Assembly: GCA_964572255.1 (NCBI GenBank)
Contig: CAZNEE010000003.1
Coordinates: 118,539-182,538 of the forward strand
Length of the DNA: 64,000 nucleotides
Source: an uncultured Planctomycetia bacterium
Lineage (GTDB): Bacteria; Omnitrophota; Gorgyraeia; Tantalellales; Tantalellaceae
Direction: 5' to 3'
Position numbers and translations under genes: made by a program. The first letter of the stretch is position 1. Each line of letters starts with the position of its first letter. The notes under the pieces are model-generated. The model worked only from the letters and a program-made list of their open reading frames with translations. It ran no database searches and was not told where the DNA came from. Below are positions 3,001-16,800 of the stretch, one piece after another.

Positions 3001-6000
3001 TGCTTGGTCAGAAATGTATCGCTGATGTTTTCGCTTTCCCAACGATGTTCCCTGAGTTCCGCTTTTTTGCCCTTTTTGCGCACCTTTTTGCTTATTTTTC
3101 CCCTTAGATCCTGCAGGTCCTTTGCCAAACTTGCAAAATCCCCCTGTTTTATGACTTTCACCTCTGTTTTGAGTCGATTTCTTTTTATCAAACGGGCTAA
3201 AGTATAAAAACCCGGCATCAGGAAAAACATGCCCCAGAATTCTTTTTTAAATAATTCATGGAGTATGATCTTGCTTAGATCTTTTTCGCGGACGATATTC
3301 CTGATAGCGTCATGATACTCAATACTTCCGTCATGCTGTCTTTCAGCTATTGCAGTAATTAAAATCTCATCGCCGGAGAAAGCTTCATCTCCGGGCGTGG
3401 GTGGCACATACCCCCTCAAGGCCATTCTGGCCAATTTTCCCAGGCCTAAAAATCTGCCGGCCGAAACAGCAAAAAAAGCTCCCAAAACGGCGAATCCCGT
3501 CCAAATGCCATAATACAGAACATGTGCTTCCACCATCAATCCTATAAGTATACCGACCAGTGCGCCCGCAAAACTGACCGCGCTCAGCATGGCCATGATC
3601 TTACCCCACAATGAAGCGCTTTCAACGGTGAACGGATGGGCCGGCGGGATCTCCGGAGGATCTTTCTGCCTCTGCGTTTCCATGAATTTTATGTCTTCTG
3701 GAAGAAATTCACTGCAATGACGGGCATAAGCAGCTAAAGATAATAATTGTCCGTCCTTTTCCGATATCAATTTTGCTAAAGCCTCCAAGGCCCTTCTGTC
3801 TTCAATACCTTCTTCGTAATATTTTTTCTCAAGAAACTTGAATGAATCCTCAAAGGATTCAAAAGGTCTTCCTTCATGGAACAAATTCATCTTATCGACA
3901 TTGTTGCCGTTTTCAAAGACATCGGCCGTAAAAAGTATCGTTAACAATAAACCTAACTCTTCGGGAGTAATGGGCAACTTGCCCCTGGAATCATCTTTTG
4001 ACGCGAAAAACTCTGAAGGAAATTGATGGTACTTTATTAAAAGTTCGACTTCCAAAGGCATTTTAACGCCAAGAGACTTTATGTCTTCTGCTGAACGTGT
4101 CCCATGGTCATAAAAATCTCTTGCTACATTTTTCTCCTCACTGGTTAATGCGCCGCCTTTTTTATTCTCAACGAATCTGTAGAAATCACTTATTGAAAAA
4201 AATGCTCTTCTGCCTTCCTTTGAAAGTTTTTTGCCGATATACCTTTTAACGTCATTGACTACCGCTGGGTCGAGAACTTTTCCGTCATGAACTTCCCCGG
4301 CAGCCATTAATATTTCTATCAACCGATCAGACAATCCTATTCTTCTGGCGATCAGCTCCGCCATTCTTGAAGCACGGGCAACATGTTCCATATGAAAATC
4401 TGTCTCTTCCGTTTGGATCGACTCTAAGCATAACTCTAACCGTTGTTCACGGTTCATTTGCATGATATCGTACTTTCCTTTAGCAAAAACAAGAAGTGAT
4501 AGAAACCTGTCTCTTCCCTGAAAGGACCTGATTATGAACTGACCATCTATATTCATCATGGCATCTGCACCGTTATCAAAAATGATCGCATCGGTAATGC
4601 CCATCTTTTCCAATCTTTGCTGCGCTTCTTTGAATGTTATGCCGATCCGGTTCGACTTGCCTTCAACGATTATCGAAACAAGATTTCCATCTTTGTCTAT
4701 AGCGCAAATATTATGGGGGTTTATGCCTCTTTTCAGGCCTATGGTAAGTTCGTTATTATCTTTATCAAGAAAGTAAACGCCGTATTTTACTTCACTTGCC
4801 GCTTCTGCTTTAATATAATGTTTTTCCTCCCGTAAATTCTCATCCAGCTGCTTTATCTGATCATCTGTCAGAGGGGCCTCTCTTTCTTCAAGTTTTAAAG
4901 TAATGAGTTTTTCTTCTATCGCCGGCACAATAAGATCTTTTATTACTTTCCCTGTTTCATCATAGAAATGGCTTACTCCGAAACTGATCTTCCCGTCAGG
5001 TATAAACGGAAAATCAAGATAATGCCTTACGTCATAATCGTGTTCGTAATGCTCGGCTAAATCGTACGGCCGGCCATTCTTAAGGATCCCGATACCGGAA
5101 TTAGTTGATACAACTTCACCTGTTATATCTTTTCCGGTACTCTCTTCTATGATCCTTTCACCTCCAGTAAACCTGACTTCTTCTATGCTGATATGTCCGT
5201 CTTTCCATATTACCAGTGACGGATATACCCGGCTATTACCGCTATAGATCAGCTCTTTTTCAGCTTCAACAGCATGAAGTCTTCCGTCAACATAAGAAGC
5301 GAGATGCGCATTCGCAAGAATGTTACCGTTGCCGGTAAACCCGATTATCTCGAAATTAGGATAGTCTTTTCTGAATTCCTCAAGATGTCTCTCGATATCC
5401 CATACATCTTTCCTGGCATTTTCATAATCCGGAGCTATATCATCAACATCTTGTACCTCTCCGCCCTCTAACTGATATTTAAAATGCATCGTGGCTTTAT
5501 CTCTTAACATTCCCCAGCTTCTTGCCATATTTTTCTGAAAAACCGGATAAGCTCTGGCTTCTGAAGGATCATATTTAGCCACTGCCATACGTGTTTCAGG
5601 GCCGCGTTCACTGGTAAAATCAACAAGCGCAACCGGTAAATGTACTTTCTCGTAAGCTTCATCGGTTATCTCTAATATTTGACCGTACTCATGCAGAGTT
5701 GAGTCTGTTAAAGCACTAACGGCTTCATCCGTCATATATTCACTAATGTTGATGCCGGATCTTTCAAGATCATCTCTTATAAAGGAAAAAGAATCCTTAG
5801 GAGATTCTTTTTCCTTTTCTTCCTCAGCTTTCAGCCTCCTCACTTCAACTCTTCTTAAATAATCCGATCCCATCTCTATTGAATCAACAGCCGTAAAATA
5901 TATATACATTCTTTTTAATAATTTTCTTATTTCAAAATCTCTCTCGTGACCATAACCAAACACCGTCTCATCTATCACATCAAAAGCTTTCTTCTTGTCC

Positions 6001-9000
6001 CTAAAAACGCTTTGCTTAACAGGCTTTTTGTCTTTATCTTGAATGGTAAATTCATCCAAAAGGATCTTTATCTCGGCTGGGACAACTATATTATTACTTG
6101 CAAATATCTGGAGGGTGTTATCCGTCGGTTTTTCAAGCGCAGCCATCTCGGGGCTACCATAAGAGCTTCCGATCGCATGAGCGATAATAAATTTATGGAA
6201 GATATTTTGGAAGTGTTCAAGGTCATCCTGGTTTTCATCTTCCCTTCCAAGCGGCCATATAATATCGAACATCCTGATAAGTCTGGTTATATGGGTTCTG
6301 TTAAGTTCATGGGGAATGATCTCCAAAAGCTCACTGTCATTAATATCCATGATGTTCCGACGCGGTTGTGTCCCCGGTTTCCCTCTCCCCGGCTCACTCA
6401 TATCAACAAATGAAAGACCGCTAAGCAGGGATAACAATAAAAGCGTCCTGGAAGTGCCGCCCGGCAGCATGGCAGCTTTATCGATCGATTTTTCTTTGAC
6501 CTCGTAATATTCCGGATCCGTGAGCCATGACAGCATCCAATTTATCACTTCCGAATTATTTCTCGGATTAACGCCTTCAAATATGGCTATTCTGATAAGC
6601 AAGGATCTGTACTGCTGGGGATATGAGACTCCGATAAGTTCCATCTTGAATGCCTCAAGAAGTTTTCCGTCGGAAGAAGTGAAATTAGCGAGCATTTTAA
6701 AATTACTGTAATGAGGTGATCTGCGGTTGTACGACGCGGCGCAATGCTCGAAATATTCTTTTAAGCCGGAGAAGCCCTTTTGTTCCGCGATATATTTGCG
6801 GTACTCGTTCTGGATCGAATACGCCTCATATTCATTCTGCATCTTCCGCGCAATGAACTTTTTGAAGTCTTCACGAAGTTTTTTGCTTTCATCGGTTTTC
6901 TGTAAAAATTCCGACATCTTTATACCGGCGATTTTTTCGCCCATTTCGATCTCTGCCTGAGCACGTTTGTTCTGATGCGGAAGCATATGAACTATTTCAT
7001 GCACGATGGCCGACTCGATCTCAGGATCTGAATATTCGCCGACGAATGCGGCATTGATCCGAACTATATCACCCCTATTTTCGTCGGTCTGCAGTATATA
7101 GGGCTTAGAGGGGTCATTAACGACTTCCAAACGGGATTTTTTAAACTCATATAATAGTTTGAGAATTTCCTTTGTATGTTTGGAAAAAGTCCAGCCGTCT
7201 TTCTCGATATGATTTATGGCATTACCGGTAAGTTTTAATATCCTCCCTTCAATAGGTGACGGTCCGGCCGGTTCAGCTTCTTTAATTTGTTTTTCGGAAG
7301 TTTTCTTGATTTTTTGCGAAATATCTATTTTTTTATCTTCCGAGCTTTCTTTTGATATCTCGGCAGACGGTTTTACCGGTTCTTGTGATATCGGTCTTTT
7401 CGCAAAATAAAATACCAAAGTTGCGATGATGCTGATCAAAACGAACGCAACCGCCATGACAGCTATTGATATTTTTCCGCTTTCACCGGATCTTTTCTGC
7501 GAAACGTCATAATATTCAGGGTCTGATAACCACTCGAACAGCCAGTTTCCGAAAACTGCCGGATCACTCTTGCCTTCAAGAGCAGCCGCAAAATAAACCG
7601 GTTTTCGCGTCCCGGGTGCGATCGCTTGCTCGAATAGATCTATTTTATATCCCTCAGGTAAAGTCCCCCCCGGATATACTATTGAAAGAAGATTGGCATA
7701 ACCTTCCTTGAAGCCCGGATCATTTGTTTTCGATCCGAGATATTTTAAATACCCTTTTAGATCGGAATAACCTTTCGCCTTTGCCTGTTCGTATCTGTAC
7801 CTGTTCTGTATGCTGTAAGCTTCAAATTCATTATGAGTAGCTACTGCTGCCGCTATTTTTATGCTTGTTGAGATCCTTTTGGTGAATCCGTCAATATTTC
7901 CCGAAAGAACAGCCTTAAAATACCCCAGAAAATTCCGTATGACCCCTAATACCCCTTTATTCCTATGTTTATCAAATGCCTTCTGCCTCTTGACCTGCAC
8001 CTTAAGAAAGTGTACCATCTCATGTAAAAGTATCGCTTCAATATCCTCTTCGGGTATATCCCGCAAAAGAACCGGATTTACTCTTAATTCCCTGTTTTTT
8101 GCCACCGCTTCTGAATGAGCTTCAAAAAGCGCATTTTTTATAGTAGTTTTGCCCGGACTTAAGAACGGATCTTTGATGAAATCCTTAACCAGTTCAAGGA
8201 GTTCCTGGCGGTGTTCAAAATCAGGAAGCCAGCCATCATGTTCAATATGGCCGGCAATATTCCGGGCTGACTGGACAATAACCTCCTGCACATGTTCAGG
8301 AGGGGATCTCTTGGCGCGGTAGATCATATAGATCGCGCCTGTTATTAATATTATAATACCTATATAGAGGACTGCCGGATTGGTAAAGTAAGTTGAGATA
8401 TCACTTTTAACAAAAGGAAAGGCAAATACGCCTAATGCCCCGGCATCAGATGGCCCCGCTCTTTTATCAGGTCCTTCCCCTTCGGGCCCCTGCTCCTTTT
8501 CTTCATCTTCTTTTACCCCCGTCATCGGCGTCACTTTGGACATTTTTTTATTCAGGATGCTGTTGAAAAGTTCCTCCCCTAATATCCTGTTCATTCTTAT
8601 CAGCGCTTTTCCGGTAACTATCTTATTGAGCTCTTCATTTGACTCATCAGTGTTGGATAGTTTAAGGTCTTTAAGCATTTCAGCAACGGTTTCGGCGTCG
8701 GTAAATTCAACTTCAGTCTTGAGTTTGGGGACCAGTCCCTGTATAACGCCGGGTACGATCAAAACTCCGTGCTTTTTGTAAAGGTAAATACTGAATATTA
8801 TCGTCTTATCAAAGCGCGCGTGGTCGCCGCAAATGCTGACATCCAGATCCCTGGCTTTTGCCGCTTTGACTATTTTCTCCAGAATTTTCAGCATTTCATT
8901 GTCAAAATGGCTGTCCTTAAGATCGTGTCTCGGCAGCTTCTTCACATCGGAAGTGAGGTCATTAGAGCCTATACTTAAAAAACTCAGGCTTACGAATTTT

Positions 9001-12000
9001 TGATCCAGGATGGCATCCAGATCTTTGATCACTTCTTCCGTTTCGACCATTATCCCCACGGGCATCCCGTTGAGAACTTCTTTTTCGATCGCGGAATACT
9101 TCTTAACTATCTCCTCTTTTACTTCGTCGATCAGCTTGCCCAAAAATTTCATGTCATCAACGGTCTTGATCATGGGGATCATCATTTTTAAGTTTTTATA
9201 TCTTGACTGAGCATAAGCGACAAAAATGGCCATTATTTGTATTTTTAAAACTTCTCTCCCCTCCGGTTCTTTATAGTAACCAAACCCATAAACCCCGGGA
9301 ATGTCAGGTAATGCAATACATTTTTTATCATGCTCCTTATCAAAGGTCCTTATAGCAACCTCTTTATCTGCGACATTGGCAACGCTAAGATATACCTCCC
9401 TTTGTCTTTCAAATTCCAGAAATGCTTTTCTATTAAATGCATATTCCGTTCTGACAAGAGCCACCCCATTAGCTCCGAAATCATTATAAAGCTCTTCAAC
9501 AATATCAGCTGCACCCGGCCTCAAATAACCGTTATCATTTTTTCTTGCATGAGCGGGTAAAATAATGTTTCCGTAAATGGACACCTCAACGCCGTCTCGC
9601 GTCTTAGCCACTGTTCTCTTTTTGCGGAGTTCACGTTCCTTTTCGACATAATAATCCTTCATCGTCTGGCTGGTGATAACCTCGCTCACCATATCCCAAC
9701 CTTTTTTTGTCCTTGGATTCCCCGCCAAAAATTTAGCTTGTTCCGTCTTTGTCATGCTCACACTGCTGATAGCCGCAGGTTCCCCTGTTGCGCAAAAATC
9801 ATCAAAGATCACCTCGGGCAGATCCACAAGCAGCATCGCGCCCGCCGCCGTGGCTAAAATAGCGACATGCTCCCGCATTGACCCGTGGCAGCTGACAAAA
9901 TATTTTATCCCGTACCTCTGCGTCATCTTCCTGAGTATGATCTCATCCCGGACCATGTCCCTGGAAACAACAACGATCTCCCTGTCTTCCTCCCTGGCCT
10001 GTTCGACTATTTCCCTTAAACCTTCTATGGCTACATCTTCTATATCAAGCTCGACAGAGAGTTTATTCACGACCCTTTCCGCTAAAGCCGCTTCATCCCT
10101 TCTTCTCTGGCCCTCAGCTATGGGATACTTCTCGCTGAGCCATTCCCAGATAGCGAAACGCGCGGTATAATTATGTTCTTCCATTTTTTTCTTGGCGGAT
10201 TCTATCGCTTCCGCCGCCAGTTTGACCTCATTTATATGCCCGAAGACATCATTTTCCCGCGCTACGGAAAAACAATTCACGAGTTTCTGCTGTTCCGTGC
10301 TTATATCCTCATCGGACACTCTATACCCCTCAGCCAAAGTTATTAATATCCTTGCGAAGATATTCCTTATACTAGTGCCCTTGTCATGTCCGATGGATAA
10401 GCCCTTAAACACATCATAAGTCCGCTTCATCTGGTAAGTAACGCCGGGGTTGCCTTTTTCAAGTTCAAAATTCAACCCTGAGATCAGGCTAAGCAGGTTT
10501 TTATCCTGATCCGTATTAACGAGGCCGACTGCCTTCCTTATCTTCTCCTGGAACTGATATTTTAAGGGTTTAAGTATACTATCTAAATGTATGCGTTCCC
10601 GGTCAATATTCTCTTCATTTATCTCGTACTCTTCGGGCATGATACTTTCATCGAAATGCAATTCTCCTTCCCGGACCGTTTCATAATTAAAGATAACCGC
10701 GTTCCAAACACCGCCCGGTATGCCGTTTGAATTGCATCTTTCAAACGGTTCAAGATGATAGACCGAAGTCAGGGACAGGGCCTCTTTGTATGATCTTTTT
10801 GTCCTTTCCAGGTCAACGATCTCGAAAGATTGCAGTAATCTTTTACGCTTATTTTCCGACAGCACCTCTCTCGTCTCCGCGTTCTGCTGCAGGTGATAAA
10901 CGGAGATCGCCACATCATCGTATACCATGCCTCTTAAGTGTTCATAGTAGATGTTAAGTTTTTTAAGCTTTTCGAGTATGTAATTTTCACAGCCTGTCCT
11001 GTTCTGCGTCGTTACGATTATCCGCGTGTAAGATTCGCCGTTTATCTCCACATCGTTGACAACAGTGAAATAAGGTTCCTTTTTCTTGGCTTCTTCTTTA
11101 CTCGTCTTTGCATCTTCAAGCGTGATCTGTATCAGTGACCATATCGTAAAAAATTCATCATACAATCTCTCTTTATGCCTTATGGTCTCCCCGTCATCAA
11201 AAAGCGATTTCTCTATACACGCATCGATAAATTCAGGCGAAACAGGCGTTACGTCCTTGTAAGTCTCCCCGTACTCTTTGGCTATATCGTGTATGTACGT
11301 TCCAAGAAGTGCATATTCGCCTCTCGCTCTTAGTTTGATAAGTTTTTTTACATCTTCCGCGCTGGTCGGCTCTTCCAGAATGACTTCTTCTTCGGCTACG
11401 TCCCCTTGATCTTCTTCCGCAAACTGTTCGCTCTCTTTTTCTTCCGGGATGGCCGGTTCTTCAAAAACGGACGGTTTTTCCTCATCCGGCGCGGCAGCAT
11501 CAACTTTTTCCTTTTGCGTGAATTTTTCTTTAACTTCCCCGATCACATCCGAAGCCGCATCCGCTACTTTCTTGAGAAAACCTTCATGCGCGCTGTTCTT
11601 CTCGATAAGTTTCACTTCACCTTCACTGACAACATAGATATTCCCGTCAAAATCAACCCTGCAGGTCTTGCCGCTTTCATCCGCCTCAGCCTTCGACCGC
11701 CCGAGATACAGCCTGAAGATCTCCGGATCGATGCGGTCATATTCAACTGCCGTGAGCCTTTCTTTGGGGATGCTGTTGTACGCCGCTTCATAATTATCAG
11801 CCCAGTAATCAACTACGGAATTAAGGTCTTTACCTTCAAGAGCGCATTTTCCCAAAGCATAGACTATGAGTTCTTCCAGCGCCGTAAAATCTCCCGTATC
11901 AAGATAAGCCTCGAGAGCAAGATCGTACTCCCCGGCTTTTACGAGTTCCCTGTAGGGGCCCGTCTTTTTCGTAAGAATGGCAACATACGGACGTATGTTA

Positions 12001-13412
12001 TCGCCGGAAAACTTCGGCATCAGAACAAGATAAGAAAGGCCTTTCTCTTTCATGAGGTCCGTGAGCCCTTCCGAGTGGTGTCCTCCGGAAATAAGCGCAG
12101 CAACACGTTTCCTCTCACGGCGCATCGAAGCTACGGTATTTGCGAGCATAGCGCTATTACGTTTTTCGGCCAACTCGTAGAACTTTAAGGCCTTTTTCGC
12201 TTCTTCGAGGATGGTTTCGGAAAGACCGTCAACCTTTATTTTTCCGATCATTTCGCGAAGATCCTCTGCCTCGCAATCTGTAAGCTGTATTTGGAAAAGG
12301 CTCTTCAAAAGCTCGATAAAATTTGTCGCCTCGTATAATTCTCTTTCCTCTTTACCGGTGAAAAGTTCGCTGAATACTTTCTCTTCCAGCTGATCAAGCT
12401 CATTTTGAAGGCCCGTTACATCAAGACTATGATATTTCCTTGTATAATCCACAAAGCGTAAAAGCTCTTTATATTCGCCGCAATCTACGCCTCTTTTTTG
12501 CGCAAAATCCACAAGCCAGCCGTGATAAACAGCCTGATCGATCCTGCCCTTTTCAAAATAAAGGGATTTAATGGCTATTTGTTCCAGGTCTTCCTTGACG
12601 GCGGATTTTGAAATGCGGTTTATTAAAAGCGTTCTTTCATCTGTAGCTTTTGAAAAATCGACCTCTTTCTCCAGATATACCGAATCGATGAACGCTTTTA
12701 TATTTGGATAACTTTCGGTGGGGATCCCTTTTTCCTTACAAAGCTTCTCAAGAAAATCCCAGTAAACATCAAAACTTATTTTTCCTTTTCGGTGGAGGCG
12801 CGATTTAAACACCATTCGGCTGAGTTCGCCGGAATATGTCTTGTCCTCTTTTTCCTTTAAAGCGGCGAGCAGTTTGTTCAAAGAAACAAGAGATCCGCGG
12901 TTTTTCCGGAATATTTCTCTGAAAACCTTAAGGTTCTCCTGATATAAACTGTTATCCTCGACTCCGTAAAGAGCAATATCTTCATCCTGTGTTGCAGTAA
13001 AAAACTCACCTGCCGATATTTTCCCTTCTTTCATCAGGTAATCTGCGGTCTCCTCCCTCAGTTTTTCATCGGGAAGAGTTTTAAGCAGCGATGTATCGAT
13101 ATACCCCGAAGCGCCTTCAACGGCAACAACGCGGACATCGTATTCGCTCATGAGGTTCTTTAAGATCTCCACTATGGAGTACTGCGCGGAAAGCGATGAG
13201 TGGCAATCCTGGATATTGATGATCGTCTCGTTCTTGCCGAGCAGGCCTTTTTTTTCGATATCGGCAAGATTTTTGGGGATATTAAAATTTTTGTTTATTT
13301 TTGGGTAGGAAGAGATATCACCGGCAGCCCATACGATCTGCTGGTGAAAAAAGATGAGGGCAACTATGGTTGCCGTGACCTTAAGAAATATATTATATCG
13401 TCTTATCCCCAT
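1..13412 (-). CDS. Giant multidomain membrane protein, 3'-truncated by the window edge (>=4470 aa in window). It has an N-terminal signal anchor and a domain paralogous to the 7013-aa neighbour. It contains a PEP-utilizing-enzyme module, two HExxH zincin-like modules and an HD domain.
   Basis: The gene is missing from the supplied ORF track because no stop codon lies inside the window. I translated the minus strand by hand from the ATG at 13412-13410, which is the first ATG after an in-frame TAA at 13418-13416. The translation begins MGIRRYNIFLKVTATIVALIFFHQQIVWAAGDISSYPKINKNFNIPKNLADIEKKGLLGKNETIINIQDCHSSLSAQYSIVEIL. This aligns residue-by-residue with residues 34-130 of the 7013-aa ORF (MADWRRRHVFFIKCVSVLVIIFFLHQQIGW...IIQIQDAHASLSAQYSIADLL). 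Internal landmark codons at 9887, 8024, 7001 and 4289 are all in frame with 13412. No minus-strand ORF >=60 aa is reported in this frame anywhere in 1-13412, which fits one uninterrupted frame leaving the window at position 1. The plus-strand ORFs here are short, S/L/P-rich antisense artefacts. Confidence 0.65.
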   Translation of the reverse strand, partial: MGIRRYNIFLKVTATIVALIFFHQQIVWAAGDISSYPKINKNFNIPKNLADIEKKGLLGKNETIINIQDCHSSLSAQYSIVEILKNLMSEYDVRVVAVEGASGYIDTSLLKTLPDEKLREETADYLMKEGKISAGEFFTATQDEDIALYGVEDNSLYQENLKVFREIFRKNRGSLVSLNKLLAALKEKEDKTYSGELSRMVFKSRLHRKGKISFDVYWDFLEKLCKEKGIPTESYPNIKAFIDSVYLEKEVDFSKATDERTLLINRISKSAVKEDLEQIAIKSLYFEKGRIDQAVYHGWLVDFAQKRGVDCGEYKELLRFVDYTRKYHSLDVTGLQNELDQLEEKVFSELFTGKEERELYEATNFIELLKSLFQIQLTDCEAEDLREMIGKIKVDGLSETILEEAKKALKFYELAEKRNSAMLANTVASMRRERKRVAALISGGHHSEGLTDLMKEKGLSYLVLMPKFSGDNIRPYVAILTKKTGPYRELVKAGEYDLALEAYLDTGDFTALEELIVYALGKCALEGKDLNSVVDYWADNYEAAYNSIPKERLTAVEYDRIDPEIFRLYLGRSKAEADESGKTCRVDFDGNIYVVSEGEVKLIEKNSAHEGFLKKVADAASDVIGEVKEKFTQKEKVDAAAPDEEKPSVFEEPAIPEEKESEQFAEEDQGDVAEEEVILEEPTSAEDVKKLIKLRARGEYALLGTYIHDIAKEYGETYKDVTPVSPEFIDACIEKSLFDDGETIRHKERLYDEFFTIWSLIQITLEDAKTSKEEAKKKEPYFTVVNDVEINGESYTRIIVTTQNRTGCENYILEKLKKLNIYYEHLRGMVYDDVAISVYHLQQNAETREVLSENKRKRLLQSFEIVDLERTKRSYKEALSLTSVYHLEPFERCNSNGIPGGVWNAVIFNYETVREGELHFDESIMPEEYEINEENIDRERIHLDSILKPLKYQFQEKIRKAVGLVNTDQDKNLLSLISGLNFELEKGNPGVTYQMKRTYDVFKGLSIGHDKGTSIRNIFARILITLAEGYRVSDEDISTEQQKLVNCFSVARENDVFGHINEVKLAAEAIESAKKKMEEHNYTARFAIWEWLSEKYPIAEGQRRRDEAALAERVVNKLSVELDIEDVAIEGLREIVEQAREEDREIVVVSRDMVRDEIILRKMTQRYGIKYFVSCHGSMREHVAILATAAGAMLLVDLPEVIFDDFCATGEPAAISSVSMTKTEQAKFLAGNPRTKKGWDMVSEVITSQTMKDYYVEKERELRKKRTVAKTRDGVEVSIYGNIILPAHARKNDNGYLRPGAADIVEELYNDFGANGVALVRTEYAFNRKAFLEFERQREVYLSVANVADKEVAIRTFDKEHDKKCIALPDIPGVYGFGYYKEPEGREVLKIQIMAIFVAYAQSRYKNLKMMIPMIKTVDDMKFLGKLIDEVKEEIVKKYSAIEKEVLNGMPVGIMVETEEVIKDLDAILDQKFVSLSFLSIGSNDLTSDVKKLPRHDLKDSHFDNEMLKILEKIVKAAKARDLDVSICGDHARFDKTIIFSIYLYKKHGVLIVPGVIQGLVPKLKTEVEFTDAETVAEMLKDLKLSNTDESNEELNKIVTGKALIRMNRILGEELFNSILNKKMSKVTPMTGVKEDEEKEQGPEGEGPDKRAGPSDAGALGVFAFPFVKSDISTYFTNPAVLYIGIIILITGAIYMIYRAKRSPPEHVQEVIVQSARNIAGHIEHDGWLPDFEHRQELLELVKDFIKDPFLSPGKTTIKNALFEAHSEAVAKNRELRVNPVLLRDIPEEDIEAILLHEMVHFLKVQVKRQKAFDKHRNKGVLGVIRNFLGYFKAVLSGNIDGFTKRISTSIKIAAAVATHNEFEAYSIQNRYRYEQAKAKGYSDLKGYLKYLGSKTNDPGFKEGYANLLSIVYPGGTLPEGYKIDLFEQAIAPGTRKPVYFAAALEGKSDPAVFGNWLFEWLSDPEYYDVSQKRSGESGKISIAVMAVAFVLISIIATLVFYFAKRPISQEPVKPSAEISKESSEDKKIDISQKIKKTSEKQIKEAEPAGPSPIEGRILKLTGNAINHIEKDGWTFSKHTKEILKLLYEFKKSRLEVVNDPSKPYILQTDENRGDIVRINAAFVGEYSDPEIESAIVHEIVHMLPHQNKRAQAEIEMGEKIAGIKMSEFLQKTDESKKLREDFKKFIARKMQNEYEAYSIQNEYRKYIAEQKGFSGLKEYFEHCAASYNRRSPHYSNFKMLANFTSSDGKLLEAFKMELIGVSYPQQYRSLLIRIAIFEGVNPRNNSEVINWMLSWLTDPEYYEVKEKSIDKAAMLPGGTSRTLLLLSLLSGLSFVDMSEPGRGKPGTQPRRNIMDINDSELLEIIPHELNRTHITRLIRMFDIIWPLGREDENQDDLEHFQNIFHKFIIAHAIGSSYGSPEMAALEKPTDNTLQIFASNNIVVPAEIKILLDEFTIQDKDKKPVKQSVFRDKKKAFDVIDETVFGYGHERDFEIRKLLKRMYIYFTAVDSIEMGSDYLRRVEVRRLKAEEEKEKESPKDSFSFIRDDLERSGINISEYMTDEAVSALTDSTLHEYGQILEITDEAYEKVHLPVALVDFTSERGPETRMAVAKYDPSEARAYPVFQKNMARSWGMLRDKATMHFKYQLEGGEVQDVDDIAPDYENARKDVWDIERHLEEFRKDYPNFEIIGFTGNGNILANAHLASYVDGRLHAVEAEKELIYSGNSRVYPSLVIWKDGHISIEEVRFTGGERIIEESTGKDITGEVVSTNSGIGILKNGRPYDLAEHYEHDYDVRHYLDFPFIPDGKISFGVSHFYDETGKVIKDLIVPAIEEKLITLKLEEREAPLTDDQIKQLDENLREEKHYIKAEAASEVKYGVYFLDKDNNELTIGLKRGINPHNICAIDKDGNLVSIIVEGKSNRIGITFKEAQQRLEKMGITDAIIFDNGADAMMNIDGQFIIRSFQGRDRFLSLLVFAKGKYDIMQMNREQRLELCLESIQTEETDFHMEHVARASRMAELIARRIGLSDRLIEILMAAGEVHDGKVLDPAVVNDVKRYIGKKLSKEGRRAFFSISDFYRFVENKKGGALTSEEKNVARDFYDHGTRSAEDIKSLGVKMPLEVELLIKYHQFPSEFFASKDDSRGKLPITPEELGLLLTILFTADVFENGNNVDKMNLFHEGRPFESFEDSFKFLEKKYYEEGIEDRRALEALAKLISEKDGQLLSLAAYARHCSEFLPEDIKFMETQRQKDPPEIPPAHPFTVESASLWGKIMAMLSAVSFAGALVGILIGLMVEAHVLYYGIWTGFAVLGAFFAVSAGRFLGLGKLARMALRGYVPPTPGDEAFSGDEILITAIAERQHDGSIEYHDAIRNIVREKDLSKIILHELFKKEFWGMFFLMPGFYTLARLIKRNRLKTEVKVIKQGDFASLAKDLQDLRGKISKKVRKKGKKAELREHRWESENISDTFLTKQYTPARRRNTSETPEQRDRGGYHFKLEEDGIFFSQVEVETQENIPQNSFEREHYRDAFEILRNLSGETLSWTNELAADNTKNLHFHLFKLDDPLPIKKYELEPLCTERDGDDVIFTVKGYPDTENPIAVFAVNGRVDNTGDINLLSTRCYDVEEIFRDNGYTVDKIVTVNKEKRATVYFFPKRHGHAKYFTDSKSVEKVGPVAMSGIWPFYRKGDYKKFKLDDIQRIFSNINVLREKHEKFGTICGEIKRNFYEAEGTGLLPPSVYFDLSSIREDPASEIKMVDLLAEKGVSRVNFIFDISRGLLDDEKKMDALKELLGHASKKMTVVVSFAGFIENIDEVGDKWNIISSKMTKYVNKVSFKVQKKSEKLERALDLVKKHCKDKNVEIYTCVSRVNLDEVRDLAQLFLNKNMSSIKKFEWEISRDMETRYSLREWEYEDLNHEMREDYGNLRKMEFAISGREETNLYVFRNGDLGVKGGRLGIRRFANIFDQKTLLTEESRGIYKDITDKIRIDHTRVLRKSAPAAPSGVRKGIINKIEELYNSHGLVDLYPHVLLEAELAEKMARRMAEEKEFQNEDILTLKLAIFVHHLGLGPRMGSHRNDFLEIRAALKKKYPAQKGEVWHIKGAMRALIKEIGAEGLPIDEQFERVCKEIAKLLKTPRRKLNKLQQEVVWSVFGVNTFAVRMLEATDISLPKEIKKDVRMLLFNYGTYREFCRKVEEDEMLIRMQSSINPEKMKQLVSIIRIANTAVNRFDPGVREDLRRENPDSIPEAIKFIIQDIEKNEQAGEETLKALSVFLNMLKDSRNNPLILGKLQKIFASSNDQTKFKNKMFLRFLDSGIGLSPADAKEIIKRYDQYEEGITIGTYYRWSERSLIIGVVGLVISLAASFMIPGALTAVPALLSTFVFLSGLWFLLIAENCKKAFEYWLSKEWNTKIINAVLAGTYKNGEINDLANGLVDEDAKEKVEDMDERMHIFLVKMAKLMGEKFLLGRELKAANL
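4000..4420 (-). other. HD-domain (metal-dependent phosphohydrolase) within the 1-13412 giant gene.
   Basis: I verified the translation against DNA at 4201-4400. It reads HMEHVARASRMAELIARRIGLSDRLIEILMAAGEVHDGKVLDPAVVNDVKRYIGKK. This fits the HD-domain pattern H..V...A..IA..lGl......l..AallHDiGK. The HD codons are at 4289-4284 and in frame. Confidence 0.45.
6500..7470 (-). other. TM-anchored HExxH zincin-like module B, a tandem paralog of module A.
   Basis: In order, the module has the TM helix ISIAVMAVAFVLISIIATLVFYFA, then HIEKDGW, then DPEIESAIVHEIVHMLPHQNK with the HExxH codons at 7001-6987 and in frame, then QNEYEAYSIQNEYRKYIAEQKGF, then WLTDPEYYEV. It has the same order and spacing as module A about 930 bp upstream. 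Confidence 0.5.
7480..8400 (-). other. TM-anchored HExxH zincin-like module A (putative metallopeptidase).
   Basis: In order, the module has the TM helix AVLYIGIIILITGAIYMIYRA, then HIEHDGW, then RDIPEEDIEAILLHEMVHFLKVQV with the HExxH codons at 8024-8010 and in frame, then HNEFEAYSIQNRYRYEQAKAKGY, then WLSDPEYYDV. Confidence 0.5.
8750..10000 (-). other. PEP-utilizing-enzyme module (phosphohistidine swivel domain plus PEP-binding TIM barrel, similar to Enzyme I / PEP synthase / PPDK) inside the 1-13412 giant gene.
   Basis: I translated it by hand and re-verified against the DNA at 8815-9672. EIVVVSRDMVRDEIILRKMTQRYGIKYFVSCHGSMREHVAILATAAGAMLLVDLPEV matches the swivel consensus ..GGRTSHAAIIARELGIPAVVG. 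The His codon is at 9887-9885. GVALVRTEYAF matches GVGLYRTEFLF. VAIRTFDKEHDKK matches VIVRTMDIGGDK. NLKMMIPMIKTVDDM matches KLRIMFPMIISVEEV. VGIMVETEEV matches IGVMVETPAA. SFLSIGSNDLTSD matches FFSIGTNDLTQY. VSICGDHA matches GMCGELAGD. The Cys codon is at ~8825. Confidence 0.6.
11600..13412 (-). other. N-terminal signal anchor plus the ~560-aa domain paralogous to 33000-34760.
   Basis: See above. I verified the translation against DNA at 13201-13412. Confidence 0.55.
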
Positions 13413-13555
13413 AACTTATTGTTATCCCCATAACATTTATGTACTTTTTAAAGTTATTAGCTAATTCAAAGTGTAAAAGTCCCTTCATGTTTTTCTTACT
13501 TACAGAAAGACATTAAAGAGCTAACAAGCTTTTTATTTATTTAATGACTAATAAT

Positions 13556-13583
13556 ATGTTAACACAATAAAAAGATTTGTCAA
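13556..13583 (-). promoter_or_regulatory. Weak candidate promoter for the 1-13412 gene: TTGACA (13583-13578), a 16-nt spacer, then TAACAT (13561-13556).
   Basis: It lies in an AT-rich spacer ~145 nt upstream of the ATG at 13412. The -10 is poor and no SD precedes the ATG. Confidence 0.2.
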
Positions 13584-13687
13584 TTTGAATATCTAACTAT
13601 TTTGATTCTTAATTATTCGGCTTTATTTTGGGATAATTTTGAAATTTGTTAACAATACTACCTTTTTCAACAATTACATAATCGTCC

Positions 13688-13732
13688 AAAAAAAATAGAA
13701 CGGCCCTGCAGTGTATTCCACGGCAGGGCCGT
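13688..13732 (-). terminator. Putative intrinsic terminator of the 7013-aa gene: a 10-bp GC-rich stem (13700-13709 pairing with 13723-13732), a 13-nt loop, then tcta plus U8 on the minus strand (A8 at 13688-13695 on the plus strand).
   Basis: The plus strand reads aaCGGCCCTGCagtgtattccacgGCAGGGCCGt preceded by aaaaaaaa. It lies ~85 nt downstream of the stop and is the last of three consecutive stem-loops (13763-13797, 13735-13759, 13700-13732). Confidence 0.45.
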
Positions 13733-13816
13733 CTGAGATGCAGGAAGGTTTTGCATCTCAATTCACGTCGCAAAGATTGAGGGGAAGCGGCGTGAACTCT
13801 ATAAGATTTTTATTTA

Positions 13817-16800
13817 TTATAGCCTGATGATCACCTCCTCGTATCTCTTCATTTCTTCCATCAAGTTCTCGAAGTTGATAGGTTTAATAGGTTCAAATAT
13901 GAGCCAGTTCTTATACCCCTCTTTTGGATTTACCTCGCCCAGGCTTTCTGATATAACTCCTTTATTCGCAATGATTTCCAATATAGCTACAAGTCTTTGC
14001 GAAACCACGCCCTCACCTACCATCTGGACAAAAGTGGGCGCCCTGTCAGCCTGAATGATCCTCTCATCCGCGTCCGTTTTTACAAGATTCGCGATATCGC
14101 CTATGGCTAGCGCATCAGGATTTTCTACGATATCGAGTTCGGGGAATGTGCTCCGGGCTAATTCAAGCGTCCTTTCGAGGGTAAGATCTTCCTGTGTAAT
14201 TAAACGTATGTTCCCCCTGTCCAACACGTCGACTAATCCTGTTTCCTCAAGCATCATATCGAGATTCTTTTCCGTTATATTGGGGTCAAGCACCCTTACC
14301 TGTATGAATCTGGACGCTTTTTCCTTGTCAAGCCCCATTGATCTTATCGTGTCAGCGATAAGCCGCATCTCGCCGACATTTCTTGCGATCTCGCTGATAT
14401 ACCTCGGCTCGCCCTCGACCAGGCCTGTTGCGGCATATGCCTTTGTCCGGTCTGTAGTCCTTATCCTTGCGTAAATATCCTTATGCCTTATATCTATCGT
14501 GAGCCGGTAAATACTTTGCTCGCTTAATTCCATGCTCTTTATGATCTCGATGCCGCCGATGGACAGCTGGTGTACCAGGTCTCTCAATTCAAGCCCGGAC
14601 ATGGAAGGAACTAACCCTCTTATCGCGCCGACATTCATGCTCAATATCAGTTCTTCCTTTTGCCCCGTAAGGGTCTTTATCTTTGCGTCTATTTCATCTT
14701 TCTCTTCCTGGGTCCTCCGTATCATGCTCCTGACCTGCTGTAATCTGAGTATTTCGCGGTTGATTTTATCCAGCTTCTTCATGGATTTGGAAGTGAAAAC
14801 ATCCGCGCGAAGTTTGTTGGCCGTTCCTATAATAAGCTCGGTTGCCTCTTTCCTATTGTATCCGGCAATAGGGGTATCGATAAGAACGACCGCGTCTATT
14901 CCCTCATCTTTCGCTGCTTTACTAAGTTCTTCGATCATGGTTTCAGTTTTACCGGGCATTACTTCTACAACGCGTATAGAAGGATCGCTGCGTTCTATCC
15001 TTTCAATAACGACCTCATCTACTGTTCCTTTTAGAATCCCGACCACAATATCGGGTTTGGGCGCTGCTTTTCCCTGGAAGATTTCTCCAATCATTGTGAT
15101 CACTTGATATGCCAGAATTATTAAACTGGAAGCAATAACTGTTGCGCCCATCTCGGTAGGGCTGATAAACGGTAACGCTCTTGCTATAAAAGATTGGATC
15201 GCTATATTCAAAGGATAATATGCATTGAATATTATCGCCGTGCTTGCGAGCAAAAAGCCTATGCCGAAAACGGTCATAAGCATTACAATGTTACCTCTGC
15301 CGCTTATTCCCCTTGGTGCGGGCGGGACTTCCGGCGGTATTGCCGGTATGACCCTGGCAAGAAGAGGTCTTATTTGTCCTTCGATTATCGACTCTCCGAG
15401 GGAAGCCGAGATCTCAAGACTTTTTTCATCATCGGTCCTCCTGGCTACATTACGTATTGTCATGTCCCTGGGATCATCCGTGTGATATGCCACATAATCG
15501 CTTTCATTCCTGCCTATGTATTCTATCCTGAACGGTTTGCCCCGCAAAGGATCGCCGAAATATTCCCTTTCGCTCTTGCGGAAATGAAATTTTACGTTAT
15601 CCTTCGCAAAGAAAACAGATTCCAGAATATTGCCCGGAAAATCGACAATTTCCATGCCTGCGGCAGCGCGCCTTCTATTCAGCTCGAGTTTATCGTCCTG
15701 GGTAACATACCTGTATTCGACTTCCTCTTTTCCTTCAGCGTCATATACCACTACCTGGTCAAGCACCCAGTCCGTTATTACCGGTTCCTGTAGTGACGCG
15801 GTATGATCGTAAATATCGGTAAGGACATAAACCCATTCCTGTCTCTTCTGGTCCTCAGAAATGCCAGCAAGCTCTTCCTGTCCTGTTTCCACCTGGTAAA
15901 CACCTTCATATTCTATTATTATGTAAAGGTCTTTTTTGCCGATAGCTTTTTTAACCCTGTAAGTAAAATATTTTCCTTCCTGCGGATTGCAGAATAATAT
16001 TCTTCTTCCGTCCTTCGCGTATTCGGAGATCTTCCCGTCCGGTTCGATGATCCTTTTTATCTCGCGCGTATCTTCATAACGCTCGGTTATCGTGCCGTCT
16101 TCCGCGACCTGGTAAACCGGAGCCGGTTCAGCTTCTTGAGGAAGTTCCGGTTCTTCAGGCTCTTTCGGCCTGCCTCTGCCGAACAAGAACATACCTCCAT
16201 AGATTATTCCGACAAATATTGCCAATGTCAGTAATATATAAAAAGAATTGATATTGCCCGCGGAATTTGACAGAAAACCCGGCGGGCTGAAACCTTCGCC
16301 CTGTGTCAACCCGAACAAAAATACCGGCGCAATACCGAATAAAGGTTTAACAGGCGGTTTTACCACCGGGGGCACCACAACCGGCGGCGCAATAATTTCT
16401 TCCGCAAGACTTGCCCTCGGTACGATGCGCGGTACGCCTATACGGACCTGCCCTGAAGTGGCCTTTATAAAATTACGGTTTACCCTTATAACGAATCTCT
16501 TGGCTCTGGCCGGATTGAACGCGCTGCCAATAGGCTTTTCGGGTTTTATCCTTAAAGTGTTCAATTTCTCAAGAAGTTCTCCTTCCACTATTTCAAATTT
16601 GGATTCTTCGCCTCCGCTATAACCGGGCATCTCAATAATGGTCTGCGGCCTGTTCTCGTCATCGTAAGCCACGATCATTATGGTATGCCCCGCCAAATTT
16701 TCCCTATAGGCTTCCGGAATGAAAAATTCAAAAACGAATTCCCTGCCCCTCATGTCCACGGGTTCTTTCAGCTCGAATTCAAGTTCCGCAAGGTTTTCTC

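Follow-up and report, generated by a model that had tools for sequence, protein, structure and literature searches.

Introduction

Enzyme I (EI; PtsI) of the phosphotransferase system (PTS), known from Escherichia coli (P08839), from the Thermoanaerobacter tengcongensis EIC, and from PDB entries 2hwg, 2wqd, 2bg5, and 6vu0, is the closest described counterpart of the element that is the subject of this report, an EI-like unit within a membrane protein of giant size (>4,470 amino acids, aa). The protein is the product of an open reading frame (ORF), designated ORF-C, in a 64,000-nucleotide stretch of contig CAZNEE010000003.1 (assembly GCA_964572255.1, positions 118,539 to 182,538 of the forward strand; hereafter the window, to which all positions refer) from an uncultured bacterium of the Omnitrophota. 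The unit, at aa ~1032-1600, shares with EI the predicted order of its domains and keeps the catalytic His, Cys, Arg, Lys, Glu, Asn, and Asp residues, and EI is its best match in sequence, profile, and fold comparisons alike. It differs from EI, a soluble protein of ~575 aa, in being embedded in a giant membrane protein, in several insertions, in the loss of Arg358, and in the replacement of the motif 'TSH' by 'REH'.

Two elaborations of EI provide further points of comparison. EI-Ntr (PtsP), the EI of the regulatory nitrogen PTS, carries an N-terminal GAF sensor domain, and its partner NPr is a separate protein; proteins of this type, with GAF and EI domains, were among the matches in our protein searches (P0026, P0048, and P0069; handles beginning with P denote proteins found in these searches). 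ORF-C resembles EI-Ntr in that an EI core follows an extra conserved N-terminal domain, and a regulatory rather than a sugar-transport role is likely; it differs in that its upstream domain is not GAF and has no match in Pfam, and in that the polypeptide is giant and membrane-anchored. Multiphosphoryl transfer proteins combine EI with HPr and EIIA in one soluble chain of ~800 aa and are encoded in sugar-PTS operons; fusions of PF00358, PF00381, and EI domains were likewise among the matches (P0097 and P0098). Three relatives of ORF-C (P0102, P0103, and P0118) resemble these proteins in combining EI and HPr in a single polypeptide. However, HPr follows EI in the relatives of ORF-C, whereas PF00358 and PF00381 are listed before EI in P0097 and P0098, in a list that is only roughly ordered, and in ORF-C itself no HPr was found.

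The setting has also been described. Giant proteins of Omnitrophota contain many transmembrane (TM) helices, divergent SecA DEAD domains, and few recognizable domains (West-Roberts 2023, bioRxiv 10.1101/2023.11.21.568195; Seymour 2023), and have been characterized as poorly conserved and of unknown function (Seymour 2023; West-Roberts 2023). Metabolic-enzyme domains occur in them, 'Archaeovorins' frequently carrying pyruvate phosphate dikinase (PPDK) domains, and PPDK_N is among the 20 commonest domains of such giants (bioRxiv 10.1101/2023.11.21.568195). The window matches this description, with ORFs of several thousand codons, TM-like segments, few domains, and a SecA_DEAD domain in ORF-A. 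Given the PPDK domains noted by West-Roberts et al. (2023, bioRxiv 10.1101/2023.11.21.568195), domains of enzymes acting on phosphoenolpyruvate (PEP) and pyruvate are not new in such giants, and an earlier, sequence-only reading of this DNA overstated the case in calling the fusion unexpected. ORF-C and the 'Archaeovorins' have in common PEP/pyruvate-enzyme domains in giant multi-TM proteins with SecA_DEAD nearby; the published account, however, concerns PPDK and PPDK_N, the ATP-grasp half, and a proposed interconversion of pyruvate and PEP, whereas the domains of ORF-C are of the EI type, lack PPDK_N, and are accompanied by HPr in relatives. Our literature search found no mention of HPr, Enzyme I, or PTS in giant proteins of Omnitrophota.

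A probably complete Enzyme I-like unit in ORF-C

Profile comparisons and structural models indicate that aa ~1032-1600 of ORF-C (numbered from the ATG at 13412 as residue 1; Table 1) is a whole divergent homologue of EI, comprising a helical subdomain, a swivel His domain, a linker, and a PEP-binding barrel. The unit is real and conserved, as opposed to a chance match of motifs, and probably has the phosphoryl-transfer activity predicted for it. Across the entire ORF, Pfam recognizes PEP-utilizers_C, NAGPA, and SprT-like domains, the first of which (PF02896) covers aa 1309-1536 (8805-9488) with an E-value of 2.7e-29 and 102.7 bits, far above the gathering score of 22.8 and in agreement with the expectation of the sequence-only reading. 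On the excised segment the score is 109 bits, and the HpcH_HpaI barrel family gives a weaker match overlapping the same region. The PDB sequence matches of the module (9/9, about 1e-15) are all to C-terminal domains of EI from the sugar PTS. Among NCBIfam models, EI (TIGR01417) scores 94.2-101 bits, PEP synthase (PpsA) 50, and PPDK 31, each far under its equivalog cut-off; in full-length ORF-C, aa 1068-1536 align with positions 83-509 of TIGR01417.

The homology extends ahead of the barrel. When a family profile from which the barrel had been excluded (aa 885-1300, alignment A4) was compared by hhalign with a profile of 30 ordinary EIs (alignment A5), the match had a probability of 97.3% and an E-value of 2.3e-11 over 224 columns. 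The EI columns concerned, 42-293, run from the helical subdomain that binds HPr through the His domain to the linker, with the EIN-like subdomain of ORF-C aligned to columns 42-~145 as the counterpart of the HPr-binding subdomain. An AlphaFold2 model of aa 985-1640 made with an alignment of 85 EIs (model 1; predicted local distance difference test, pLDDT, 74.5) found phosphorylated full-length EI (2hwg_A) as its best Foldseek match (E 2.6e-22, 664 columns), a fold that the EI alignment could itself have imposed; model 2 (m051dd099aaa0), made from family sequences only and with no EI, also has full-length EI as its best fold match. Ordinary EIs are ~24% identical to the module.

We assign the unit to the EI type and reject an identity as PPDK or PEP synthase because the score against TIGR01417 is higher than those against the other two models, the insert in the His domain is the helical subdomain typical of EI, the best fold match is full-length EI, and Pfam finds no PPDK_N (PF01326) ATP-grasp domain anywhere in ORF-C. 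The last is a check that the sequence-only reading had proposed. That reading had recognized that a giant multi-TM protein encloses a swivel His domain and a PEP-binding TIM barrel, an identification that can now be sharpened to EI; its hand translation was correct, and all the motifs it quoted lie where it placed them. The span it gave, 8750-10000 (aa ~1138-1555), does contain these motifs, but the EI-like part is larger, and the conserved cassette to which it belongs is larger still (Table 1).

The upstream part of this cassette, aa 700-1030, is modeled in the family-only model as helices and beta-alpha-beta units (pLDDT about 55-88), and C-x-S-N-G-I-P-G-G is its family motif. Neither Pfam nor PDB sequences gave a match to it, and the fold searches, dominated by the EI part, gave none that was usable; it is possibly a regulatory or sensor domain.

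Conservation of the catalytic residues

Residues were mapped in the alignment that contains ORF-C and 85 EIs, to which E. coli EI was added as reference; its H, R, R, K, E, N, D, R, and C were verified at the published positions 189, 296, 332, 340, 431, 454, 455, 465, and 502. The EI-equivalent columns in this alignment are invariant or near-invariant among the 85 EIs. Moreover, His1182 and all mapped barrel residues (Table 1) are invariant in 12/12 members of the family described below, in which the relatives are 32-42% identical to ORF-C.

The swivel His domain is divergent, reading 'GSMREH' in place of 'GGxTSH' ('GGRTSH' in E. coli EI), with the histidine in the context 'GSMREH-VAILATAAGAMLLV'. 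The sequence-only reading had located the swivel motif without pinning down which histidine is catalytic. His1182, the second histidine of the string, pairs with EI His189 in both the MAFFT and the hhalign alignments and is invariant in the family, whereas the column of His1176 ('SCH') reads H,H,H,K,H,N,R,Y,V,N,E,S in the 12-sequence alignment; His1176 was therefore rejected and His1182 is the predicted phospho-acceptor. The conserved EI Cys and Arg positions claimed by the same reading are borne out for the equivalents of Cys502, R296, R332, and R465, but not for R358, which is lost. A substitution of the catalytic His or Cys, which it had named as evidence against an active unit, is not observed, both residues being kept.

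A recurrent cassette in giant proteins

An exhaustive HMMER (phmmer) search of 1.84 billion cluster representatives with aa 700-1660 as query (frame numbering, that is, ATG numbering + 1) yielded 12 proteins at E < 1e-30, of which 11 (P0102-P0112) match nearly the entire query (alignment A3). Seven of the 11 are 1,700-7,326 aa long. Truncation may explain the shorter ones; P0104 occupies most of a short 8.6-kb contig. When whole ORF-C was compared with these relatives by blastp, aa ~654-1697 alone was common to ORF-C and all 11; besides the cassette, the shared stretches of ORF-C are limited to its N-terminal domain and aa 2543-2976, each of which recurs in a few of the relatives. No other portion of these otherwise poorly conserved giant proteins is conserved as well as the cassette. 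The mobile His domain model (PF00391) gives weak matches under threshold in 4/12 family members (best E 0.0026; P0102, 16.4 bits vs 23.1).

A genome scan with alignment A4 located the cassette at two loci, both in metagenome-assembled genomes (MAGs) of Candidatus Omnitrophota: L001 (JBDRIH010000020.1), which by length and position matches the P0102 gene, and L002, which likewise matches the P0104 gene, on separate MAG contigs. Genes neighboring L002 had no Pfam match. The ORF-C protein alone as query recovered no relatives in genome or metagenome collections, the metagenome scan with A4 gave no match, and word-indexed protein searches with the module, with aa 700-1300, or with the 12-sequence A3 returned ordinary EIs at <=32% identity, or nothing. 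Further giants (P0138, P0143, P0150, and P0175) embed the PEP-binding barrel, and in these four a His-domain-like motif can be recognized by eye ahead of it. The unit is best filed as a divergent, membrane-tethered EI variant that forms a recurrent cassette of giants related to those of Omnitrophota.

P0102 contains two EI-like modules in one protein, at aa 2966-3417 and 3578-4529, the second of which is more canonical ('ALTSHWAIV') and just 22% identical to ORF-C. The C-termini of P0102-P0107, P0109-P0112, and P0143 look alike by eye, ending in '...YER(Y)V..VL..A' or '...IRTAA/LSSAA'.

HPr domains behind the module in relatives

A PTS-HPr domain (PF00381; cut-off 23) directly follows the module in P0102 (47.8 bits) and P0103 (47.5 bits), with the HPr motifs 'GIHMRA' and 'GLHARP', and P0111 has a weak, interrupted HPr-like domain under threshold (18 bits). 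In addition, the more distant giant P0118 (4,189 aa) combines canonical PF00391 (36.5 bits), PF02896 (144.8), and PF00381 (27.7) with a NAGPA domain as in ORF-C. The Pfam-significant HPr domains directly after the module in P0102, P0103, and P0118 support a phosphorelay role, and with it the suggestion of phosphorelay signaling made by the sequence-only reading. In ORF-C itself the barrel is followed by a short acidic/glycine linker and then a hydrophobic segment, with no HPr. A custom HPr hidden Markov model, built from E. coli and Bacillus subtilis HPr and the HPr-like domains of P0102, P0103, and P0111, gave no significant match (best E-value 0.68) in ORF-A, ORF-B, and the visible part of ORF-C.

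Membrane topology

A hydropathy scan of ORF-C gave 5-7 TM-like segments, with none between a signal-peptide-like or anchor segment near the N-terminus (aa 8-26) and aa ~1660, directly behind the cassette (Table 1). The homologous N-termini of ORF-B and P0150 begin like that of ORF-C. Given the signal-like start, the lack of a TM segment before aa ~1660, and the positive charges after the TM segment there, a naive topology would place aa 30-1660 outside the cytoplasm. The segment at aa 1660-1698 may include a hairpin's second half, which would agree with the orthologues. In P0102, P0104, P0105, P0106, and P0112 the cassette is succeeded by hydrophobic stretches, which in some relatives precede it too and which we read as putative TM helix pairs. 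Arg and Lys abound on the outer flanks of these pairs in P0102, P0104, P0109, and P0111, a pattern suggestive of hairpins that leave the cassette in the cytoplasm; in P0106 the signals are mixed. Hydropathy and positive-inside indications thus conflict, the N-terminus of ORF-C pointing outside and the orthologue hairpins to the cytoplasm. We infer that a cytoplasmic cassette is the more likely arrangement because of the enzyme chemistry, the fused HPr domains, and the orthologue flanks.

Proposed function and alternative explanations

We consider it probable that aa ~1032-1600 is a divergent EI, predicted to be catalytically competent, through which PEP would feed a His phosphorelay. Homology with EI suggests the following mechanism. 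PEP and Mg2+ would bind the TIM barrel via R1321, R1355, K1363, E1457, N1484, D1485, and R1495, the swivel domain would align His1182, which would become phosphorylated, and Cys1528 would protonate the enolate, with release of pyruvate. The phospho-His domain would then rotate off the barrel, and a protein bound to the helical subdomain would accept its phosphoryl group. In three to four related giants this acceptor would be the HPr domain fused directly behind the module; for ORF-C the candidates are an HPr encoded elsewhere, the C-terminus of ORF-C beyond the window, or another domain of the megaprotein. The ~330-aa upstream domain and the EI unit could together form a regulatory phosphorelay input that signals to the remaining protein how much PEP is available, in which the upstream domain may act as the GAF domain does in PtsP. 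Homology, domain order, fold, invariant catalytic positions, and the recurrence of the cassette with HPr are what the comparisons show; activity, acceptor, cytoplasmic location, and biological role are proposals built on them.

Several observations weigh against this proposal. The module misses the TIGR01417 cut-off of 341.7 bits and is accordingly a distant homologue, not an EI equivalog. Neither the mobile His domain (PF00391), for which the sequence-only reading had expected a match, nor the EI N-terminal domain (PF05524) is detected in ORF-C even at the loosest E-value setting, and the His domain was recognized instead by profile-profile comparison, alignment, and structure prediction. The Thr-Ser that precedes the catalytic His of EI is Arg-Glu in ORF-C. 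Across the three window ORFs, 21,000 aa in all, Pfam finds no HPr, EIIA, EIIB, or other domain of a PTS acceptor. The naive topology would put the module where PEP is not expected and where there is no known source of it. EI requires dimerization, and the cassette here is membrane-tethered. Finally, Arg358, invariant in 85/85 EIs, has no counterpart in ORF-C, where F/G is aligned. In EI this residue lies on the beta3-alpha3 loop at the dimer interface and contacts the phosphoryl group of PEP (PMC5537066). In the family of ORF-C, the corresponding loop has strongly conserved residues of its own (K1359, C1365, F1377, Y1379, and Y1380, the last three forming 'F-x-Y-Y'), and it therefore appears to have been rebuilt, not to have decayed.

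The remodeled yet conserved loop, situated as it is where EI dimerizes and binds PEP, can also be accommodated by an unlikely but credible alternative, namely that the unit is a PEP or pyruvate sensor without onward transfer, which binds PEP, perhaps autophosphorylates, and regulates neighboring domains through a change of conformation or dimerization. The lack of HPr or other PTS domains in the three window ORFs, the conserved extra domain ahead of the module, and the presence of fused HPr in just 3/11 orthologues (2 above the Pfam cut-off), plus the distant P0118, are all compatible with such a sensor. It accounts less well for the retention and conservation of the EIN-like helical subdomain, known for docking HPr, and the relatives with fused HPr argue for transfer as the ancestral role; furthermore, the HPr searches covered the window, with the C-terminus of ORF-C and the remaining genome lying outside it.

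A dikinase-like role, or one as a small-molecule phosphotransferase, appears decidedly improbable. PPDK, PEP synthase, and rifampicin phosphotransferase would be its models: phospho-His1182 would deliver to a site on another domain that binds a nucleotide or small molecule, and the local formation of ATP or phosphorylation of a substrate would amount to the PEP-driven energy coupling envisaged by the sequence-only reading, for which we found no support. The absence of PPDK_N or ATP-grasp matches from ORF-C, the EI-type helical insertion in the His domain, EI model scores two- to three-fold above those of the PpsA and PPDK models, and the HPr fusions in relatives all speak against it.

It is very unlikely that the unit is a degenerate relic, an ancestral EI captured by the giant gene and now a non-catalytic scaffold. 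The score far under the EI equivalog cut-off, the missing R358, the non-canonical counterpart of 'TSH', and the lack of a partner in the window would fit such decay, but ten catalytic positions are invariant over 12 sequences at 32-42% identity while flanking positions vary, and the cassette is the part of these poorly conserved giants that has been conserved best. The chance that a chimeric assembly or a frameshift fused a normal ptsI with the giant ORF is negligible, and nothing was found in favor of it. The frame is open without a break for 13.4 kb, 11 other cluster representatives (two of them traced to separate MAG contigs) embed the unit in the same way, with the upstream domain ahead of it and TM segments behind, and ordinary EIs are just ~24% identical to the module.

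In a further, quite unlikely scenario, the cassette would recur in a subset of giants as their control or power input. A PEP-charged His relay, from EI to HPr or to an internal acceptor, would make the megaprotein's activity, its assembly, or its export depend on the PEP supply of the cell or its prey. In the extreme version, the naive topology would hold, and the module would lie outside the producer cytoplasm and work inside or at the prey, PEP becoming available to it only upon contact with a host or prey cell; if so, a PTS enzyme would be serving as a predation effector or sensor.

Organization of the window

Three giant ORFs, ORF-A, ORF-B, and ORF-C, lie in tandem on the minus strand (Table 1). 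The ORF-C frame is free of stops from 13415 to 3 (4,471 codons). ORF-A contains just two recognizable regions by Pfam, a Laminin_G_3/Pentaxin domain near its visible N-terminus and a SecA_DEAD domain (115 bits) with P-loop_SecA at about aa 7,126-7,750, and ORF-B has no Pfam match at E <= 0.01 across its 7,013 aa.

Table 1. Positions of the giant ORFs in the window and of the parts and residues of ORF-C
Feature	Residues (aa)	Window position	Strand	Basis or remark
ORF-A	>9,578 aa	35265-63998	-	extends past window end
ORF-B	7,013 aa	13820-34858	-	
ORF-C	>4,470 aa	3..13412	-	giant protein; ATG at 13412; C-terminus past window start; third in tandem
N-terminal signal-peptide-like or anchor segment	8-26	13335..13391	-	after 'MGIRRYN'; weak hydropathy peak 1.61
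Conserved cassette, ~950 aa	~670-1630	8523..11405	-	upstream domain + EI-like unit; phmmer relatives, A3, blastp
Upstream conserved domain(s)	700-1030	10323..11315	-	A3 conservation; model 2
EI-like part (predicted)	~1032-1600	about 8613-10319	-	profile-profile, alignment, models
EIN-like alpha-helical subdomain, with 'AER...DIEDV' motif	1032-1140	9993..10319	-	hhalign; TIGR01417 from position 83; helices in both AlphaFold2 models
Swivel (mobile) His domain	1145-1232	9717..9980	-	alignments; hhalign; alpha/beta fold in family-only model
His1176 codon ('SCH')	1176	9885..9887	-	family column variable
His1182 codon, predicted phospho-acceptor (= EI His189)	1182	9867..9869	-	aligned to invariant His of 85 EIs; 12/12 family
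Long linker helix, His domain to barrel	1236-1262	9627..9707	-	helix 537-563 of m051dd099aaa0; EI linker in hhalign
PEP-binding TIM barrel (EIC-like)	1280-1600	8613..9575	-	PF02896 over aa 1309-1536
Other catalytic residues	R1321 (=R296), R1355 (=R332), D1358, K1363 (=K340), M1455, E1457 (=E431), N1484/D1485 (=N454/D455), R1495 (=R465)	8928..9452	-	codons checked
Remodeled beta3-alpha3 loop, 'DKEHDKKCIALPDIPGVYGFGYYKEPEG'	1358-1385	9258..9341	-	without Arg358
Cys1528 codon (= EI Cys502, proton donor to pyruvate enolate)	1528	8829..8831	-	invariant in 85 EIs; 12/12 family
Motifs of the module	SCHGSMREH 1174-1182, GVALVRTEY 1316, VAIRTFD 1352, HDKK 1361, MMIPMIK 1410, VGIMVETEE 1452, LSIGSNDLT 1479, ICGDHA 1527	9867-9893 (SCHGSMREH); 8817-8834 (ICGDHA)	-	
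Hydrophobic segment(s) right after cassette, then 'RAKRSPP'	1660-1698	8319..8435	-	hydropathy scan; one clear TM helix

The N-terminal ~600 aa of ORF-B and ORF-C are alike (aa 39-690 vs aa 4-603, the latter at 11604-13403; 36% identity, blastp E 3e-118), each module sitting behind a signal-peptide-like start, and the adjacent giant genes are thus partial paralogues; parts of this module also occur in P0102, P0143, and P0150. The two genes are separated by an AT-rich spacer of ~400 bp (13416-13819). Just 3' of the ORF-B stop, at about 13690-13735 on the minus strand, a GC-rich hairpin with a T-run (ggccctgc...gcagggcc tttttttt) was read by eye and was not called by the scan, and the spacer also holds a promoter-like TTGACA-16-TAACAT with a TG extension (13583-13556). 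Together, these elements suggest separate transcription of ORF-C. The motif 'ttatggggataa' occurs twice around the ORF-C start codon.

Downstream of the cassette, aa ~1700-2140 of ORF-C (window ~6990-8315) hold two tandem units in which a putative Zn-metalloprotease lies behind a TM helix. Pfam recognizes the first protease as SprT-like (31.5 bits, aa 1765-1809, 'HEMVH'), and the second, with 'HEIVH' near aa 2139, was recognized by eye only; a similar 'W(L/M)..WL(S/T)DPEYY' motif closes both units. The NAGPA (phosphodiester glycosidase) domain lies at aa 2889-2963 (window 4524-4748; 34.3 bits), and ~430 aa around it (aa 2543-2976, 4485-5786) are 29% identical to aa 3951-4408 of P0111. HD-like and HIT-like motifs seen by eye elsewhere in ORF-C were dropped, the PDB sequence match not being significant. 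The GC skew of the plus strand is uniformly negative across the window (cumulative -5.1 over 64 kb), with a GC content of 40-51%.

Implications

The cassette is an exception among poorly conserved giants, in that ~950 residues are kept in at least 12 protein clusters with an invariant catalytic center. It provides a rare biochemical handle on otherwise opaque megaproteins, in the form of predicted PEP-dependent His phosphorylation. To the known range of PTS proteins the cassette adds a divergent lineage of EI, one that lacks Arg358, has a rebuilt dimer-interface loop, is membrane-tethered as part of a multi-enzyme polypeptide, and sometimes carries its own HPr. Furthermore, the EI module sharpens the question of topology for the 'metabolic' domains of these giants, the need for PEP being a natural marker of the cytoplasmic side.

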